From Candidatus Kaiserbacteria bacterium (lineage in GTDB: Bacteria; Patescibacteriota; Minisyncoccia; Phycocordibacterales; UBA2100), in NCBI GenBank assembly GCA_027083345.1, contig JALWOZ010000030.1, positions 977 through 64,976 of the forward strand: a stretch of DNA of 64,000 nucleotides, written 5' to 3'. Position 1 is the stretch's first letter. Every line of letters starts with the position of its first letter. A model generated the notes under the pieces. The model did no database searches and had not been told where the DNA came from. It saw only the letters and a list, made by a program, of their open reading frames with translations. The position numbers were made by a program, and so were the translations under genes. Shown here piece by piece: positions 29,900-61,272 of the stretch.

Positions 29900-33360
<3,461 letters not shown>

Positions 33361-55069: not shown

Positions 55070-55990
55070 TTAACCTCTTTTGCGATTATGAAACGCCTTA
55101 TGCACCTCCTTGAGATGCTTGTCTGTCACGTGCGTATATACTTGAGTAGTAGATATGTTGGCGTGACCAAGTAAGGCCTGCACTGCGCGCAGGTCGGCTC
55201 CACCTTCAAGGAGGTCTGTAGCAAAGGAGTGTCTTATCACATGCGGGGTAACCTTTTTGCTAATACCAGCCTCAATAGCTCGCCTCTTGACTATCCTCTC
55301 TACAGAGCGGGGGGTAAGGCGCATATCTCCGCTCTCCTCCGCACCTTTAGCTAAGGAGATAAACATTGCCTCATCCATATCTTTACGTGCATTGAGATAC
55401 TTATTTAAGGCCTCTTTGGCAGAAGAGGAGAGGAAGACAACACGCACCTTAGAACCCTTACCGCGCACAGAGAATTCATCTCTGGTTAAATCCAAATCTC
55501 TATCTACAGAGCACAACTCCGAAACGCGCAAGCCTGTAGAGAAGAGGGTATGGAGTATCGCAGAATCTCTCAATGCCTTTAGAGTACCCGCGTCCTCCCC
55601 CTTGCTTGGCGCCTCTAGCAACCTCTTTAGCTCATCACAGGTAATGAGGTCTAGGTCTCTGTCTCCGAGCTTAGCAAGCTCTATTTTATCCGGGGCCAAA
55701 CATTTGACACCTCTCTTGCGAAGATACTTTAAGAATGAGCGCAGGGCTATAAGGTGGTAGTTTTGTGTATTCTTCTTCAACGTGTCGCCATCTGAGCCAA
55801 TTTGCCTATTGAGCCACAGTCGATATTCGCGCACAGACTGCTCTGTAATGTCTTTAGGCTTATCTGCGCCAGAGTAACCAAGGTACCTAACTAAGTATTG
55901 ATCATAATTTGCAACAGTCCTTGCGGCTCTGCCACGCTCTATCTCCAAATATTCTAGATACTCCTGCTTTAGGTCAAACAAACTTTGCAT
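55070..55990 (-). CDS. Tyrosine site-specific recombinase, XerC/XerD-like
   Basis: N-terminal SAM-like core-binding domain. Catalytic R...HxxR...Y (HVIRHSFATDLLEGGADLRAVQALLGHANISTTQVYTHV). Confidence 0.85.
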   Translation of the reverse strand: MQSLFDLKQEYLEYLEIERGRAARTVANYDQYLVRYLGYSGADKPKDITEQSVREYRLWLNRQIGSDGDTLKKNTQNYHLIALRSFLKYLRKRGVKCLAPDKIELAKLGDRDLDLITCDELKRLLEAPSKGEDAGTLKALRDSAILHTLFSTGLRVSELCSVDRDLDLTRDEFSVRGKGSKVRVVFLSSSAKEALNKYLNARKDMDEAMFISLAKGAEESGDMRLTPRSVERIVKRRAIEAGISKKVTPHVIRHSFATDLLEGGADLRAVQALLGHANISTTQVYTHVTDKHLKEVHKAFHNRKRG

Positions 55991-56106
55991 TAATATAATT
56001 ATAACACCAATGAACCAATAATCTTATAAATAACTACGAGGACTTGCATTCTTGCATTAGTGGCTAATATATTGTATAATCGTGCGCACTAAGTCACAAA
56101 AATCAT

Positions 56107-56376
56107 ATGACATTAACAAAAAGAATAAAAACAGCAGCAATCAAAAAGGTACAAAAAAGTGATAAAGACACTGGCTCTGCCGGCGTACAAGTATCAATAC
56201 TATCTAAAAAAATAGACAAACTAGCTGCCCACTTAAAAAAGAACCACAAAGACACTCACTCACGCAAGGGTCTATTGCAAATGGTAGCAGACCGCCGTAA
56301 GCACCTAAAGTACCTAGAGAAAAAGGATTCAAATACCTACACAGAGCTTGTTAAGACTCTTGGCTTGAAGAAATAG
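56107..56376 (+). CDS. rpsO: 30S ribosomal protein S15
   Basis: GSAGVQVSILSKKIDKLAAHLKKNHKDTHSRKGLLQMVADRRKHLKYL matches the S15 signature. Confidence 0.9.
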   Translation: MTLTKRIKTAAIKKVQKSDKDTGSAGVQVSILSKKIDKLAAHLKKNHKDTHSRKGLLQMVADRRKHLKYLEKKDSNTYTELVKTLGLKK

Positions 56377-56589
56377 CCTTTACTAAAACATAAGTACTAG
56401 ATCGTTGCGAGGCCATCCGCAAGATTTGGGCTTGGACGATAAATCCTACGCTTGCGTAGTGATTTATCCCAAATCTGAGGACTGTTGCTTGCTCCGCAGG
56501 AGAGCAGGCATTGCCGAGGAATGATATAGTACTTATGTTTATACATACCTCTTATATCAATTACTAATACACAATATATAATAAACACA

Positions 56590-57153
56590 ATGACAGTAAC
56601 AAAACACCCGCAACAAAGAGTTGCCATATTCATAGATACACAAAACTTATATCACAGCGCCAAGAATCTCTACGGAGCCAAGGTCAACTTTAAGAATCTC
56701 CTTGAGGATGCCGTGGCAGGCAGGCAGCTCATCCGCGCCAAGGCCTATGTGGTAGACACCGAGGGAGGGGAGGAGCAACCCTTCTTTGAAGCACTGGAGA
56801 AGCTCGGCATAGACATAAAGACAAAGGATATACAAGTCTTTGCAGGCGGAGCTAAGAAGGCCGACTGGGATGTAGGCCTAGCAATAGACGCCGTAACAAT
56901 CTCTCAAAAGATAGACGCCGTGGTACTAGCCACCGGAGATGGCGACTTTGTACCTCTTGTTAAGTACTTACAAGCACAGGAGTGCCAGGTGGAGGTTATA
57001 AGCTTTGCGCGCAGTAGCTCTGGGATGCTTATTGAGGCTGTAGACGACTTTATAGACATGGGGCAAGATAAGAGGAGGTACCTCATAGGCAACCGCCGCC
57101 GCAACTCCAACACCAAACGCAAACAATCAACTCGTAGAAATACTACAAAATAA
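56590..57153 (+). CDS. NYN-domain (LabA-like PIN-fold) predicted RNase, basic C-terminal tail
   Basis: RVAIFIDTQNLYHS...VVLATGDGDFVPLVKYL matches the LabA/NYN pattern (conserved acidic residues D16, D127/D129). Arg/Lys-rich tail. Confidence 0.75.
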   Translation: MTVTKHPQQRVAIFIDTQNLYHSAKNLYGAKVNFKNLLEDAVAGRQLIRAKAYVVDTEGGEEQPFFEALEKLGIDIKTKDIQVFAGGAKKADWDVGLAIDAVTISQKIDAVVLATGDGDFVPLVKYLQAQECQVEVISFARSSSGMLIEAVDDFIDMGQDKRRYLIGNRRRNSNTKRKQSTRRNTTK

Positions 57154-57199
57154 TCGGAATACATAGTAATTAAAGTTAAGTTAATTAGTATCACTAGTA

Positions 57200-57228
57200 T
57201 TGACTAGTGTACTAATGTGTGTTATTAT
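57200..57228 (+). promoter_or_regulatory. Candidate sigma70-like promoter TTGACT-17-TATTAT followed by a roughly 235-nt structured leader
   Basis: Hexamers at 57200-57205 and 57223-57228. Several hairpins at 57340-57450. Strong SD AAAGGAGAAAAG 6 nt before the ATG at 57465. Confidence 0.35.
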
Positions 57229-57464
57229 TCTAGTGTAGATCAAGATGGTATTCAATCACGACATTACCTATGCAAGTGATGTTTGAGACTATTCCTTGGT
57301 TTAAAATTGTTCTTTTACAATATGATACTTAGGTTAAGACGTGGTGTTAGATATTCCACTTTGGTTTTGATTACTCGAAACCAGTGTGGAGTATCTGCTC
57401 CCGTCTGTCGAAAACGGACGTTAAACCCAGTCTCAGCCCTCGAGGGGGCGAAAGGAGAAAAGTC

Positions 57465-58526
57465 ATGATCAATACTTTAGAATATATAAACGCAATGGGT
57501 AAGGCCAGCAAAGCTGGCCTCCCCGCCGAGGATGGCGGGGTTGAATACGTCCGCCACCAACTGGCGGCCGGTAACCCAATCGATAGCGAGCGGGTGGTGC
57601 CACTCGCTATAGATGAAACGAGGGGTGTAACCCCTCTCCGGCAGGACGCTTTCGAGCGTCCCGCTCTGGCCATACCGGCCGAGTGGGGCCACCTGAGGGC
57701 GGCCCGCCTCATGATAGAGGCCGGGGCAACCACCCACGGGGTGGTATGGGACGGGTGTGAAGTACCATGGGAGGAGAAGGCGGACTGGGTCCGCGAACTT
57801 CTTTCAATGGTACCGGCTGACCAGCCGGTTCTCATACACCCGCAGTCAATCGCCGCGGGTGGTGATAGATACTCCCTCATGGAGTATCGCCCCGAGCAAG
57901 GGGTGAAGGACGGTGGGTATAATACCCGCCATCTCTTAAAAAATGACCGGGCGCTCAGCGCGCCGGTCGAGGCGCTGGCAATGATCGTTCGCGATCCGCG
58001 GGCGATCTTGGGGGGCAACTTCAAAGGCTGCAACCTGCACGCAATGCTACCGGTCATGACCGGTGCGTACCGGGGGCACTCGGTCCTTGATGCATCACCA
58101 AATTTTTATGACCTTGGTCCTTGGTCGGTGTCGGAGGAGGAGGTTACGGCCTTCTTCTGGCGACATTTTGAACACCCCCAAGAGGCGGCTGTGATAACAC
58201 AGCCCCTGCTTGGGAAACTGCTGTGGCGAGCCGTTAAGGGGCGTTCCGCGCTCGTCTACCACGACGAGCCGGACGCCCTGGTAGGATTCCACCAAGGGCT
58301 TGGAACATGCGGGCTGGCTGCCCGCATATGGCGGTGGAAGGACTACGGCCAGGAGGCGTACTACGCCTCTCTGACGAAGGTAGACGTCAGCGCCGACACA
58401 GAGGAATGGCGTCATGCAGACCCAATTCCTTTGGTGCAAAAAATCTGCCGAACAAAGGCAGAGGCGCGCACCTGGCTCGACGAGCAGGTTGCCGCTGCGG
58501 CTAAAGTCGCAGCCAAAACCGCCTGA
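57465..58526 (+). CDS. GC-rich hypothetical protein (353 aa), compositionally foreign. Function unknown.
   Basis: Uninterrupted ORF with canonical SD. GCC/GGC/CGG-rich codon usage in sharp contrast with the AT-rich flanks. No recognisable motif. The ORF-track start at 57384 is less likely than the SD-ATG at 57465. Confidence 0.6.
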   Translation: MINTLEYINAMGKASKAGLPAEDGGVEYVRHQLAAGNPIDSERVVPLAIDETRGVTPLRQDAFERPALAIPAEWGHLRAARLMIEAGATTHGVVWDGCEVPWEEKADWVRELLSMVPADQPVLIHPQSIAAGGDRYSLMEYRPEQGVKDGGYNTRHLLKNDRALSAPVEALAMIVRDPRAILGGNFKGCNLHAMLPVMTGAYRGHSVLDASPNFYDLGPWSVSEEEVTAFFWRHFEHPQEAAVITQPLLGKLLWRAVKGRSALVYHDEPDALVGFHQGLGTCGLAARIWRWKDYGQEAYYASLTKVDVSADTEEWRHADPIPLVQKICRTKAEARTWLDEQVAAAAKVAAKTA

Positions 58527-58908
58527 GTATCAACAACGCCGGTGGGAAGCTATGCTTGCCACCGGCACGGTTAAAAGTTTCAAGGTAGGTTCTTTCCAAA
58601 AACCTCCAACTCTCTTAGAGTGTGTACTCTAACTGATGAGTCCCCGACCTCCGTAACTACGGCGGGCAGGCACAAGGACGAAAGAGTCTTACAATCCAAC
58701 TAAATAAAATAAAAGTTTCAACAGAGCTCAAAAACAGGCAGGTCATCGGGAAGCCGACAAATTTGGTAAAGTTATGTAAATTTGGTACACTGACGCTATT
58801 ATAAACACGAGTTTGCAGATACAGCATTGAACTTTGCTTATATCTGATATATAAGCAAAAGACGTTCAGTTCTGCATTCTGTAAGCTCATAAAAACGTTG
58901 GTATGTAA

Positions 58909-58994
58909 GTGAGAGTGGTGGAAACAATTTTCAAACCCGGGGCAGTGGGCGGCTAGGGATAGAGGGTTTGAAAATTCGTTTGCTCCGCTCTCAC
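58909..58994. repeat. Hairpin element C: imperfect about 30-bp inverted repeat (gtgagag...attttcaaaccc / gggtttgaaaatt...ctctcac) flanking conserved core cccggggcagtgggcggctagggatagaggg, in the pnp 5' leader
   Basis: Core nearly identical to element B (38029-38059) while the stems are unrelated. 32 nt upstream of the pnp ATG. Confidence 0.6.
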
Positions 58995-59025
58995 TATAAG
59001 ACTTACGAATAATCACATAAACATT

Positions 59026-61272
59026 ATGGAAGCATTCCCAAAGAGTATGGTACTAAAGGAGTACTCAATAGAGGTAGGTGGCAAAACGCTCACCGCACAA
59101 TTTACAAACCTTACAGACCAAGCAAATGGCTCTGTGATAATGCGTTATGGCAACACGGCCGTAATGGTCACAGCGGTGATGGGCAGAGAGAAGGAGGGTC
59201 AGAGCTGGTTCCCGCTCTCTGTGGAGTTTGAAGAGAAGTTTTACGCAGCCGGAGCAATCCTTGGTGGCAGATTCCGCAAGAAGGAGGGTATGCCTAGCGA
59301 GGAGGCAGTACTTAGTGCCCGCGTTATAGACCGTACAATCAGGCCACTATTTGACCAAAGTATGCGCCGTGACATACAAGTAATAGCAACAGTCTTAGCA
59401 ATAGACGAGGAGGATCCAGATGTGCTTGGAGTAATAGGTGCAAGCTTAGCACTAGGCACAAGCGACATACCTTGGGCGGGGCCAGTGAGTGCCGTGCGTA
59501 TAGGCTTGTCCTCCGAAGCCTTAGCGAAGGAGGGTAGGGTTAATGGTAATGACGAGTTTATAATCAACCCCAACTACTCTCAGCGCACAGCAGAGAATGA
59601 GTCCCTAGACCTACTTGCCTGCGGTAAGGATGGCAACATAAACATGGTAGAGGTAGGTGCAAAGGAGGCTACAGAGGAGACTACCGGCAAAGCACTAGAG
59701 CTAGCAGCCAGCGAGACAAACAAGTTACAAGAATGGCAAAAACAAATTATAAGTGAAATAGGTAAAGAGAAGGTGGAGATAGTAACACCTAAGCCAAGCG
59801 AGGAGCTTAAAGCCCTATTTAACACCGAGATAATGCCAAAGATGACGGAATACGTCTTTGGAGAGAAGGGTGCCTACGCACTTAAAGACGAGTGGATGAG
59901 TATAGTAAAGGAGAAGGAGGAGTTCGCAGGTGAAGTGCAGAATGCCGACGACTACTTTGAGGAGATGGTAGACGCCGTGGTACACACCGAGGCGCTTGAT
60001 AATAACAGGCGCCAAGACGGCAGAGCGATGGACGAGCTCCGCCCACTCTATGCTCAGGCCGGCGGAGTGAGCGAAATGATACACGGTACAGGCATCTTCT
60101 ACCGCGGAGGTACACATGTGTTCTCAGCTCTTACACTTGGATCACCAGACGATGCACAGCTCATAGACACCATAGAGACACAAGATGGCTCAAAACGCTA
60201 TATGCACCACTACAACTTCCCTCCATATTCTGTGGGGGAGACAGGGCGCGTTGGAGGCTTCAACCGCAGGATGATAGGGCACGGCGCCTTGGCAGAGAAG
60301 GCTCTTGTGCCGGTACTTCCAAGTAAAGAAGAATTCCCTTATACAATCCGCATAGTGAGTGAGACGATGGCCAGCAACGGCTCTAGCTCACAAGCCAGTG
60401 TATGTGGCTCAACTCTTGCACTTATGGATGCTGGAGTGCCTATTAAGAAGCCGGTGGCCGGCATCGCAATGGGTATGATGAGTATGGGTAATCCTGGAGA
60501 CTCAGATTACCGCTATAAGATACTCACAGACATACAAGGTCCTGAGGATCACTTTGGTGACATGGACTTTAAAGTAGCTGGTACTAAAGACGGCATCACT
60601 GCAATACAGATGGACGTAAAGGTTGGCGGAGTGCCGGTTGAGGTGCTTAAGGAGGGTATAGAGCAAGCTAAAAAGGCACGCTTGCAAATACTAGAGGTAA
60701 TGCACGAGGCCATAGCCGAGCCACGAGAGAGCATAAACCCGCGCGCGCCACAGATAATCTCAATGACAATTAAAGAAGACCAGATAGGCCTCGTAATAGG
60801 CAAGGGTGGCGAGACTATAAATGGCCTTAAAGACGAGACGGGAGTAGACGAGATCACTATAGAAGACGATGGCACAATCTTCATCACCGGTAAGGGTGAG
60901 AGCACAGAGCTAGCCAAGAGCAAGATAGAGGAGCTTACACACGAGTACACAGCAGGAGAGAAGTTTGAGGGTGAGGTAGTGAAGATAATGGACTTTGGAG
61001 CATTTGTACGCATTGCCTCTGGTACAGAGGGCTTGGTGCACATCTCTGAGATAGCCCCCTTCCGCATTAACAATGTGTCAGATGCGCTTGCAGAAGGAGA
61101 GAAGGTTAATGTTATAATAAAGGAGGTCAAAGAGATGGGAGGTAAGCAAAAGATAGACCTCTCTATAAAAGACGTTGACCCCGAGTTTGCAGAACGTAAA
61201 GGCCTGTCTGCCGCAAAGGCAGGTTTAAAGCCACAAAATGAAAATGATAGAGGAGATAGACAAAACAAATAA
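59026..61272 (+). CDS. pnp: Polyribonucleotide nucleotidyltransferase (PNPase)
   Basis: Two RNase PH domains, KH (ISMTIKEDQIGLVIGKGGETI) and S1 (GEKFEGEVVKIMDFGAFVRI) domains. 748 aa. Confidence 0.95.
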   Translation: MEAFPKSMVLKEYSIEVGGKTLTAQFTNLTDQANGSVIMRYGNTAVMVTAVMGREKEGQSWFPLSVEFEEKFYAAGAILGGRFRKKEGMPSEEAVLSARVIDRTIRPLFDQSMRRDIQVIATVLAIDEEDPDVLGVIGASLALGTSDIPWAGPVSAVRIGLSSEALAKEGRVNGNDEFIINPNYSQRTAENESLDLLACGKDGNINMVEVGAKEATEETTGKALELAASETNKLQEWQKQIISEIGKEKVEIVTPKPSEELKALFNTEIMPKMTEYVFGEKGAYALKDEWMSIVKEKEEFAGEVQNADDYFEEMVDAVVHTEALDNNRRQDGRAMDELRPLYAQAGGVSEMIHGTGIFYRGGTHVFSALTLGSPDDAQLIDTIETQDGSKRYMHHYNFPPYSVGETGRVGGFNRRMIGHGALAEKALVPVLPSKEEFPYTIRIVSETMASNGSSSQASVCGSTLALMDAGVPIKKPVAGIAMGMMSMGNPGDSDYRYKILTDIQGPEDHFGDMDFKVAGTKDGITAIQMDVKVGGVPVEVLKEGIEQAKKARLQILEVMHEAIAEPRESINPRAPQIISMTIKEDQIGLVIGKGGETINGLKDETGVDEITIEDDGTIFITGKGESTELAKSKIEELTHEYTAGEKFEGEVVKIMDFGAFVRIASGTEGLVHISEIAPFRINNVSDALAEGEKVNVIIKEVKEMGGKQKIDLSIKDVDPEFAERKGLSAAKAGLKPQNENDRGDRQNK

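Follow-up and report, generated by a model that had tools for sequence, protein, structure and literature searches.

A hairpin-tiled orphan gene followed by a predicted hammerhead ribozyme in a variable slot beside pnp of a Patescibacteria genome

Within a 64,000-nt stretch of a Candidatus Kaiserbacteria genome (contig JALWOZ010000030.1, positions 977 to 64,976; hereafter the window), a 353-codon open reading frame (ORF), termed ORF353 (57465..58526, + strand), stands apart from its neighbors in several respects. It has a G+C content (GC) of 60%, is tiled along its length with short local hairpins and encodes an orphan protein. Eighty-three nucleotides after its stop codon lies a type III hammerhead ribozyme motif with a complete core and three stems (58609..58687, +). 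Together with a candidate promoter and a structured leader, these elements make up a lineage-specific insert of ~1.6 kb, running from roughly 57154/57171 to 58766, between the gene for an NYN-domain RNase and the promoter of pnp. The initial annotation had described the gene as a GC-rich newcomer with a hairpin-rich leader and had overlooked both the hammerhead and the hairpin tiling of the ORF itself.

The setting of the insert becomes clear from its relatives. Pnp-anchored loci from GTDB species representatives were compared with the window proteins by tblastn, and the nearest relatives were retrieved via the NYN protein (74-90% identity). The order rpsO-NYN-pnp is standard in this Patescibacteria clade and is kept in nearly all relatives examined, usually with xerC, exoIII and cca upstream and a hypothetical gene and dksA downstream; the nearest relatives retain the same backbone as the window. 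The NYN-domain RNase gene (56590..57153, +; Pfam NYN E = 1.3e-34; GC 0.49) is part of this native backbone and forms the left flank, outside the insert. The NYN-pnp spacer is empty in L090 (188 nt), L093 (158 nt), L094 (106 nt) and L096 (293 nt), four loci whose NYN proteins are 74-83% identical to that of the window. It holds a RelB and YafQ/ParE toxin-antitoxin pair in L088, an AT-rich 142-amino acid ORF in L085, a GcrA-like 68-amino acid ORF in L098 and other small ORFs in L003, L004, L007 and L008, and it is empty or otherwise filled in at least 15 relatives. Because its contents vary in this manner, the slot can be described as hypervariable, with empty as the ancestral state. As an observation on the clade as a whole, the spacer is an accessory-gene hotspot (window 56107-61272, loci L003-L024 and L085-L099) that may be empty or host RelB/YafQ, other toxin-antitoxin-like pairs, a GcrA-like ORF or orphans.

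These comparisons bear out the initial annotation on the insertion itself, as the slot of the relatives is empty or different and the ORF353 insert is absent from sister genomes, but not on its position, which had been given as between rpsO and pnp and is in fact between NYN and pnp. The conserved arrangement of the clade is itself rpsO-NYN-pnp. The moderately GC-enriched NYN gene and the tyrosine recombinase about 1.5 kb away, both pointed out in the initial annotation, do not belong to a mobile element. The recombinase is of the Xer type (~240 bits to XerC/XerD/XerA) rather than a phage or integron integrase, its integron integrase match being partial (123 bits against a cut-off of 265). It stands in conserved synteny in most of the nearest relatives, including ones with empty slots, and rpsO and NYN lie between it and the slot. 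Both genes are conserved backbone, outside any mobile element.

The limits of the insert are marked by the loss and return of nucleotide homology to relatives, which ends at 57099 in the alignment with L085 and restarts at ~58762-58810. An imperfect direct repeat of 25 nt (19/25 identical, spacing 1596 nt) brackets the insert, with its left copy at 57171..57195 (+) and its right copy at 58767-58791 (+), where it coincides with the pnp promoter. The repeat is possibly a duplicated pnp promoter or an att-like core; with a local-alignment shuffle P of ~0.02, it is suggestive only. Both junctions are crossed by a 3507-nt Logan contig (run SRR13853571) that is 100% identical to 55445-58951; this contig is unitig-based and separately assembled, and its sample may be the same or a different one. 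The same arrangement is present in three assemblies (Logan, ENA and NCBI).

In composition, ORF353 is the extreme case of its surroundings. Its GC of 0.602 compares with 0.415 for the 64-kb window, and in sliding 1062-nt windows (mean GC 0.415, sd 0.046) its locus has the highest value anywhere in the 64 kb. Among the 43 ORFs of at least 150 amino acids, it ranks first for GC (z +4.4; the runner-up has 0.522), for GC at third codon positions (GC3 0.661, z +4.6) and for how far its synonymous codon usage departs from that of the pooled genes (z +4.7), so that the sliding-window and codon-usage checks both uphold its earlier description as a GC-rich outlier with atypical codon usage. Its amino acid composition is also of the high-GC type (Ala 13.6%, Lys 4.0%, Asn 2.3%). 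The frame is a coding one. The GC values of its first, second and third codon positions (0.68/0.46/0.66) show clear periodicity, and frame 0 is free of internal stops, of which the other five contain 5-17. At the stop frequency of the other two + frames (33/706 codons), an open frame of 380 codons would arise by chance with a probability of ~2e-8, and the frame must therefore be real.

The encoded protein is an orphan. A word-indexed search of 5.8 billion clusters recovered the query alone, and an exhaustive phmmer search of 1.84 billion representatives returned seven weak matches, in each of which many short stretches align to one part of the query; most are giant ankyrin-repeat proteins, and the top match is an fn3-repeat phosphatase. 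In all, no real homologue was found among ~15 billion proteins, none in IMG/VR and JGI metagenomes by back-translation scans, and none in plasmids and phages by tblastn. That the protein belongs to no recognizable family, as stated in the initial annotation, is confirmed by Pfam, NCBIfam, PADLOC and PHROGs, none of which gave a match. The Pfam ANK models did not match ORF353 even at E values up to 10. Consensus ankyrins of the PDB align with residues 63-91 at E = 1.9e-4, a value reached only by summing several target repeats over one segment, and the N-terminus is, on sequence similarity of this kind, possibly ankyrin-like.

Predicted RNA structure sets the transcription unit apart from the rest of the window. 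Its 1321-nt GC-rich block has a minimum free energy (MFE) of -645.5 kcal/mol, against -516.1 +/- 9.6 kcal/mol in dinucleotide shuffles (z = -13.4), and is thus about 25% more stable; ORF353 alone reaches z = -12.3. When synonymous codons are shuffled with the protein kept, most of this stability is lost (z = -9.0). Pairing is predominantly local, with 69% of bases paired and a median pair span of 16-17 nt in both the block and ORF353, and just 3% of pairs spanning more than 500 nt. In 150-nt windows, z values of -3 to -7 are sustained from ~57175 to 58675 only, and the coding regions of xerC, rpsO, NYN and pnp lie at ~-3 to +2, mostly near 0. A scan of the entire 64 kb gave an average z of -4.34 for the nine windows of the region versus -0.42 +/- 1.37 elsewhere, and no other stretch, the 23S rRNA gene included, is comparably structured.

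This stability is spread over many small elements. A span-limited fold yields 43 hairpins in 1470 nt, approximately one per 34 nt from promoter to ribozyme. Their stems have no consensus in common, and each of the three codon phases is represented. Perfect Watson-Crick hairpins (stem of at least 7 bp, loop of 3-8 nt) number 11 in ORF353 against 0.3 +/- 0.5 expected, and the same count is 0 in each of pnp, cca and xerC; the excess of perfect hairpins is 10- to 30-fold. The zone of strong structure reaches as far as the ribozyme and ends ~75 nt short of the end of the insert, which mildly favors selection at the RNA rather than the DNA level. Paired positions have a GC of 0.69 and unpaired positions 0.40 (unpaired GC3 0.41, host-like). 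Given this GC of the stems, and a GC3 that does not exceed the GC of first positions, much of the apparently foreign GC may be structural and not the signature of a donor. Tiling of this type was considered as a general trait of hammerhead-adjacent genes and rejected, as 84 phage contexts have a mean z of ~-0.7 with an extreme of -2.66; the most structured of them, L130, is only patchily so. The slot cargo of sister genomes is also without hairpin tiling.

At the 3' end of the unit, the hammerhead reads ACUCU-C/UUAGAGU-GUGU-ACUCUAA-CUGAUGA-GUCC...GGAC-GAAA-GAGU on the + strand, where the slash marks the predicted cleavage site after C58614. Stem III (58609-13 with 58683-87) has 5 bp and is open, stem I (58615-21 with 58626-32) has 7 bp and is closed by the loop GUGU, and stem II pairs GUCC with GGAC and bears an inserted hairpin of ~27 nt as a distal helix. 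CUGAUGA (58633-39) and GAAA (58680-83) form the core. Each residue of the catalytic core is in place, namely C3-U4-G5-A6-N7-G8-A9, G12-A13-A14, the A15.1-U16.1 pair (A58683-U58613) and C17 (C58614), and the three-helix topology is that of type III, with stems I and II loop-closed and stem III open. In the window, a structural descriptor matches this site alone, and it has no match in 200 shuffled windows; over 1.05 Mb of relatives, it returns only minimal-stem, spurious-looking matches. R1, a covariance model derived from 24 type III hammerheads of phages, has its sole match in the window at 58609-58687, at full length and with all 15 pairs formed (49.6 bits, E ~1e-11), a score that is partly circular because the members of R1 were collected with the core pattern taken from the window site; stems I and III, like loop I, do not depend on that pattern. 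If the core is held unpaired, folding recovers exactly the canonical hammerhead (MFE -28.9 kcal/mol; canonical stems alone -23.2 kcal/mol). Only one hammerhead is present in the window, on the + strand, and no second ribozyme was found in the leader by Rfam E-value scan, descriptor or R1.

Fast hammerhead cleavage at physiological Mg2+ needs a tertiary contact between loop I and stem II/loop II. Here, UGUG of loop I (58621-24) is complementary to a CACA bulge on the 3' side of stem II (58671-74), a 4-nt match that could be due to chance. Between the stop codon and the ribozyme lies a GC-rich hairpin of 12 bp (58538..58566, +), which begins 12 nt after the stop codon and is without a U-tract; no intrinsic terminator was found between ORF353 and pnp.

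The closest counterparts of this ribozyme are found in phages and in one other Patescibacteria genome. At least 120 phage contigs of IMG/VR contain the core pattern CTGATGAGTCC-N-GGACGAAA, and 121 of 130 phage core sites complete a hammerhead fold (96 of type I, 25 of type III). Type III members from phages share the stem I loop UGUGUA or UGAGUG, and loop I of the window is UGUGUA. In locus L008 (Paceibacterota, DATDYB010000010.1), R1 finds two type III hammerheads at 453-534 and 1169-1219 (+; 54.9 and 45.2 bits), which flank a 169-amino acid, weakly NUDIX-like ORF beside a PIN/MazE-like pair. In both, stem II starts with U10.1-U11.1, and one of them shares with the window the loop I UGUGUA and an insertion of ~30 nt in loop II with the motif CUACGGC..GGCA..GGCAxAAGGA. 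No hammerhead with such an extended stem II or loop II insertion was found in IMG/VR, and a literature search found no paper linking hammerheads to Patescibacteria. Judged by its sequence, the ribozyme would be a new sub-variant of a known family. A structured spot with CTGATGA in L004 proved to be two terminators.

Hammerheads at gene borders have precedents. Hundreds of bacterial hammerheads flank single genes of variable identity near prophage functions and probably process long transcripts (PMC3088659). A separate observation concerns phage contig L169 (1892-6178; IMG/VR UViG_3300041956_000313), in which five copies of the same hammerhead core lie within 4.3 kb at distances of ~480-2000 nt, illustrating the cassette-flanking arrangement in DNA phages.

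The insert also brings its own expression signals. A sigma-70-like promoter of the form TTGACT-17 nt-TATTAT with an extended -10 TG is predicted at 57200..57228 (+) by consensus match only; it scores 10/12 and is the best site within 55900-59100. Its -35 box is overlapped by a 31-bp palindrome, TTAGTAtCACTAGT-attg-ACTAGTGTACTAA (57185..57215), which is unique in the window at up to 3 mismatches, was matched in 0/100 shuffles and is absent from all relatives. The palindrome is a candidate operator, but the insert contains no regulator gene. The structured 5' leader of ~230 nt (57235..57464, +) includes a 30-bp hairpin (57337-57406) and the Shine-Dalgarno (SD) sequence AAGGAG (57452-57457), 7 nt ahead of the ATG, and folds with z = -5.07 (sliding-window z of -3.2 to -4.8). 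The candidate promoter, hairpin-rich leader and canonical SD of the earlier description are thereby recovered. No Rfam family, among them large structured RNAs and riboswitches, matches the leader or ORF353. Over its first 36 nt, ORF353 is AT-rich (GC 0.28) and remains largely unpaired, in line with a translated start. The leader also contains a 61-codon ORF with a TTG start (57283-57468, +), whose end overlaps the start codon of ORF353 in the sequence ATGA; it lacks a convincing SD and is therefore probably spurious, and from the overlap it may alternatively be translationally coupled to ORF353.

With a confidence a little above even, we favor the explanation that this is a self-contained acquired cassette that entered a hypervariable slot from a mobile pool associated with Patescibacteria (the candidate phyla radiation, CPR) and that expresses an orphan protein from a nuclease-hardened, ribozyme-terminated mRNA. 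The cassette would have entered a Paceibacteria-type genome downstream of the NYN RNase gene and ahead of the pnp promoter and would comprise, in order, the promoter with its palindrome, the structured leader, the SD and ATG, an open AT-rich start, ORF353, the 3' hairpin and the hammerhead. Transcription would begin near 57235, and the hammerhead would cut co-transcriptionally after C58614, freeing an ORF353 mRNA with a 2',3'-cyclic phosphate end 48 nt past the 12-bp hairpin at 58538-58566, which would become the 3'-proximal stem-loop of the message. Cleavage would also detach read-through from the cassette from the pnp promoter and its autoregulatory-type leader. A structured leader, dense hairpins in the body and a hairpin-capped, cyclic-phosphate end would together render the mRNA hard to attack for endonucleases that are specific for single strands and for 3' exonucleases such as PNPase, and the same structure probably also hinders Rho. 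Under this proposal, the high GC would be at least partly a by-product of stems rather than the trace of a high-GC donor, and because of its ribozyme, the cassette would appear to originate from a hammerhead-bearing mobile or phage gene pool. The analysis directly shows the insertion, the coding frame, the orphan status of the protein, the architecture of the ribozyme and the excess of structure; cleavage activity, a stabilizing or insulating role and the function of the protein are here read from anatomy and established hammerhead chemistry. The combination of a hairpin-tiled transcript with a terminal hammerhead was not seen in the comparison sets examined, and the cassette is a variant of hammerhead-bounded or moron-like accessory cassettes, set apart by extensive local RNA structure on an orphan coding sequence.

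Several considerations weigh against this explanation. The case is built on sequence and predicted folds, and it concerns one instance of a hairpin-tiled gene, the hammerhead cassettes of phages and of L008 being without tiling. The 25-nt flanking repeat is of marginal significance. The stem-versus-loop GC test is only suggestive because the pnp control shows a weaker bias of the same kind (0.58 paired versus 0.38 unpaired). The minus strand folds almost as well as the plus strand (-611 versus -655 kcal/mol), the hairpins being largely perfect Watson-Crick; G-U pairs number 49 on the + strand and 33 on the - strand, and since control genes show similar strand asymmetry, the strand test does not separate an RNA-level from a DNA-level cause. 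The Rfam model Hammerhead_1 gives the ribozyme 21.4 bits and so falls short of its gathering score of 34; the 32-nt insertion in stem II is penalized in that model. Hammerhead_3 scores lower and is suppressed as a clan competitor. Furthermore, the unconstrained MFE of -32.2 kcal/mol favors a competing 12-bp helix (58585..58596 with 58680-58692, +; GAAAGAGUCUUAC) that hides the GAAA core and could trap the ribozyme in an inactive state. On the strength of these modeled folds, the helix may act as a conformational on/off switch, or the energy model may have produced it as an artefact. Finally, single-sequence AlphaFold2 gave no usable model of ORF353 (mean predicted local distance difference test score, pLDDT, 38.5).

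A first alternative, which we consider unlikely, holds that the functional product is the RNA itself, non-coding or dual in function, which could for instance act as a scaffold or capture RNases or RNA-binding proteins as a decoy or sponge, with the ORF vestigial or secondary. Such a role would suit a unit with structure at or above the level of viroids and rRNA across 1.45 kb, equipped with a predicted processing ribozyme and situated between an RNase gene (NYN) and pnp. The protein, for its part, has neither a homologue nor a confident fold. It would leave a stop-free frame with clear codon periodicity to chance, and it accounts poorly for a start region that is open and AT-rich and is preceded by a canonical SD and ATG. 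Moreover, the unit matches nothing in Rfam, and its pairing is nearly all local, unlike that of known large structured RNAs.

Somewhat less probable again is that an ordinary gene has recently moved in from a high-GC donor, such as an actinobacterial host of an epibiont, and retains the composition of that donor. The initial annotation had leaned towards this possibility, and the extremes of GC, GC3 and codon usage, the high-GC type of the amino acid composition and the status of the gene as an insertion relative to sister genomes all agree with it. However, no homologue turned up in any collection, well-sampled Actinobacteria included, so nothing points to Actinobacteria or to any other identifiable donor. 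A GC3 of 0.66 that does not exceed a GC1 (GC at first codon positions) of 0.68 would be atypical for a fresh gene from a genome of 60-67% GC. A donor also leaves unexplained the z of -13, which is controlled for dinucleotides, the excess of perfect hairpins and an AT-rich leader that is equally structured, and the nearest relative of the accompanying hammerhead lies in another Paceibacterota genome.

Of equally low probability is a purely DNA-level origin of the hairpins, either as quasi-palindromes perfected by template switching or through selection on a single-stranded DNA or rolling-circle element, with no role in the mRNA. The many stems that are perfect Watson-Crick palindromes and the near-equal folding of the minus strand, with an asymmetry within the range of control genes, would be accommodated by such a process. 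Nevertheless, the structured zone matches the transcription unit and leaves out the last 75 nt of the insert, G-U pairs are more numerous on the + strand, and the translation start region is specifically unstructured. Neither a replication or HUH-type gene nor a repeated hairpin family is present.

Coding circular RNAs with compact structure, an overlapping ORF and a type III hammerhead do exist (10.64898/2026.09.16.752053), and the unit could in principle be a DNA copy or domesticated derivative of such a viroid-like replicon of the Obelisk, zeta-virus or satellite type. It resembles these RNAs in size (1.3-1.5 kb, within their ~1-1.5 kb), in an MFE excess of ~25% beyond shuffles, which falls in the viroid range, and in the combination of a type III hammerhead with an orphan ORF overlapping compact structure. 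Yet the unit is part of the chromosome and has the promoter and SD of a bacterial gene, its single ribozyme is on one strand, where viroid-like RNAs would have one per polarity and no DNA form, and its local hairpins, with few long-range pairs, do not make a rod-like fold. The hammerhead is of a type seen in DNA phages and Patescibacteria genomes, and no reverse transcriptase is nearby. This origin is accordingly quite improbable. A bolder version of the cassette proposal, to which we give the same small probability as to an RNA product, is that the locus represents the first example in nature of an "armoured" coding RNA borne on DNA, with a sequence due chiefly to selection for pervasive hairpins and a 3' end generated by hammerhead cleavage; it would then have originated either as a new class of nuclease- and Rho-proof mobile mRNA cassette of Patescibacteria or as a domesticated viroid-like coding replicon. 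An assembly chimera, in which a GC-rich fragment of another organism was misjoined into a Patescibacteria contig and which had been raised in the initial annotation, is scarcely credible: base composition does shift abruptly, and the evidence at hand consists of assembled contigs, but three assemblies agree, the Logan contig spans both junctions without mismatch and thus makes a chimera unlikely, the shift falls within a continuous transcription unit that has an AT-rich leader, and the insert occupies exactly the slot that varies among relatives.

Comparison with known systems helps to place the cassette. Like bacterial and phage hammerheads (Perreault et al. 2011, PMC3088659; Rfam clan CL00010), the ribozyme has a complete core and three stems in the type III arrangement, and with the IMG/VR phage members it shares the loop I UGUGUA and the GUCC/GGAC stem II. 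Like gene-flanking hammerheads (PMC3088659), it lies at the end of an accessory gene without annotated function, where it would presumably cut a longer transcript into a single-gene mRNA. It departs from known hammerheads in its ~27-nt loop II hairpin, otherwise found only in one other Paceibacterota genome, and in a G-C pair at 15.2-16.2, through which the cleavage triplet becomes CUC instead of the usual GUC. Furthermore, it is a single ribozyme and not one of a flanking pair, its host is a member of the Patescibacteria, and its adjacent gene is hairpin-tiled, whereas the genes in the 84 phage contexts are not.

The cassette also recalls accessory modules of other kinds. Like integron cassettes, IMEX and pdif modules, it occupies a variable single-gene slot near a tyrosine recombinase and has an imperfect end repeat, and the toxin-antitoxin pairs and orphans of its relatives are cargo of the kind carried by integron cassettes and IMEX. 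It differs from these in that the Xer enzyme is conserved and present also beside empty slots, and no attC-like or dif-like repeat common to the cargoes of different genomes was found. An integron or IMEX mechanism was therefore rejected, given the conserved Xer-type recombinase, the lack of an end repeat common to the cargoes and the uniqueness of the palindrome. Morons are autonomous promoter-gene-terminator units of deviant composition that sit between prophage genes. The cassette is similar to them in having its own predicted promoter, a position between conserved genes, a deviant composition and a content that varies among relatives; it differs in residing in the housekeeping operon rpsO-NYN-pnp rather than in a prophage, in carrying a ribozyme at the position of the terminator and in its extreme RNA structure. 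Engineered parts offer a further parallel. RiboJ-type insulators combine a hammerhead with a hairpin, and dense structure in a coding sequence with an open start lengthens the functional half-life of an mRNA. The hammerhead would similarly part the upstream transcript from the native leader of the downstream gene, and ORF353 likewise joins dense coding-sequence structure to an open start region. Those insulators and optimized mRNAs are synthetic, whereas this is a natural locus with predicted activity.

To the right of the insert, the native pnp promoter (within 58763..58888, +) has a -35 of TTGGTA and an extended -10 of TGgTACACT at 58783-58791. Its columns are invariant in an alignment of eight relatives, across which the extended -10 reads TGnTAYACT. 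The same holds for the columns of a conserved, long imperfect hairpin in the pnp leader (58809-58888, +), in which 58809-58832 pairs with 58864-58888 and which folds with a z of -4 to -5, as does the same place in relatives. The hairpin is possibly the counterpart of the one known in E. coli to serve RNase III/PNPase autoregulation. The variable loop of the hairpin is, in the window, a perfect 11-bp palindrome (58833-58859). Further into the pnp leader, a G-rich element of ~40 nt, CAAACCCGGGGCAGUGGGCGGCUAGGGAUAGAGGGUUUGA (58932-58971), is near-identical in the window, L085, L088 and L096; it is absent from L090, L093, L094 and L098 and has no match in Rfam. Elsewhere in the window, the 23S rRNA gene (29901-33356, -) measures 3456 nt against the 2925 positions of the bacterial model and must therefore contain ~530 nt of insertion(s). 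Insertions in rRNA genes are often seen in Patescibacteria.

Taken together, these results extend hammerhead-bounded gene cassettes to the Patescibacteria and identify the NYN-pnp spacer as an accessory-gene hotspot in this clade. If the ribozyme cleaves and the tiling stabilizes, the cassette would be a natural counterpart of ribozyme insulators and of structure-optimized, long-lived mRNAs, and it lies inside the rpsO-NYN-pnp cluster of RNA-decay genes of an ultra-small bacterium. It also advises caution in the compositional detection of gene transfer, as high GC in an AT-rich genome can stem from selection for RNA stems and not from a donor. More broadly, ORF353 makes it possible to test to what extent a single bacterial gene can accommodate RNA structure on top of protein coding.

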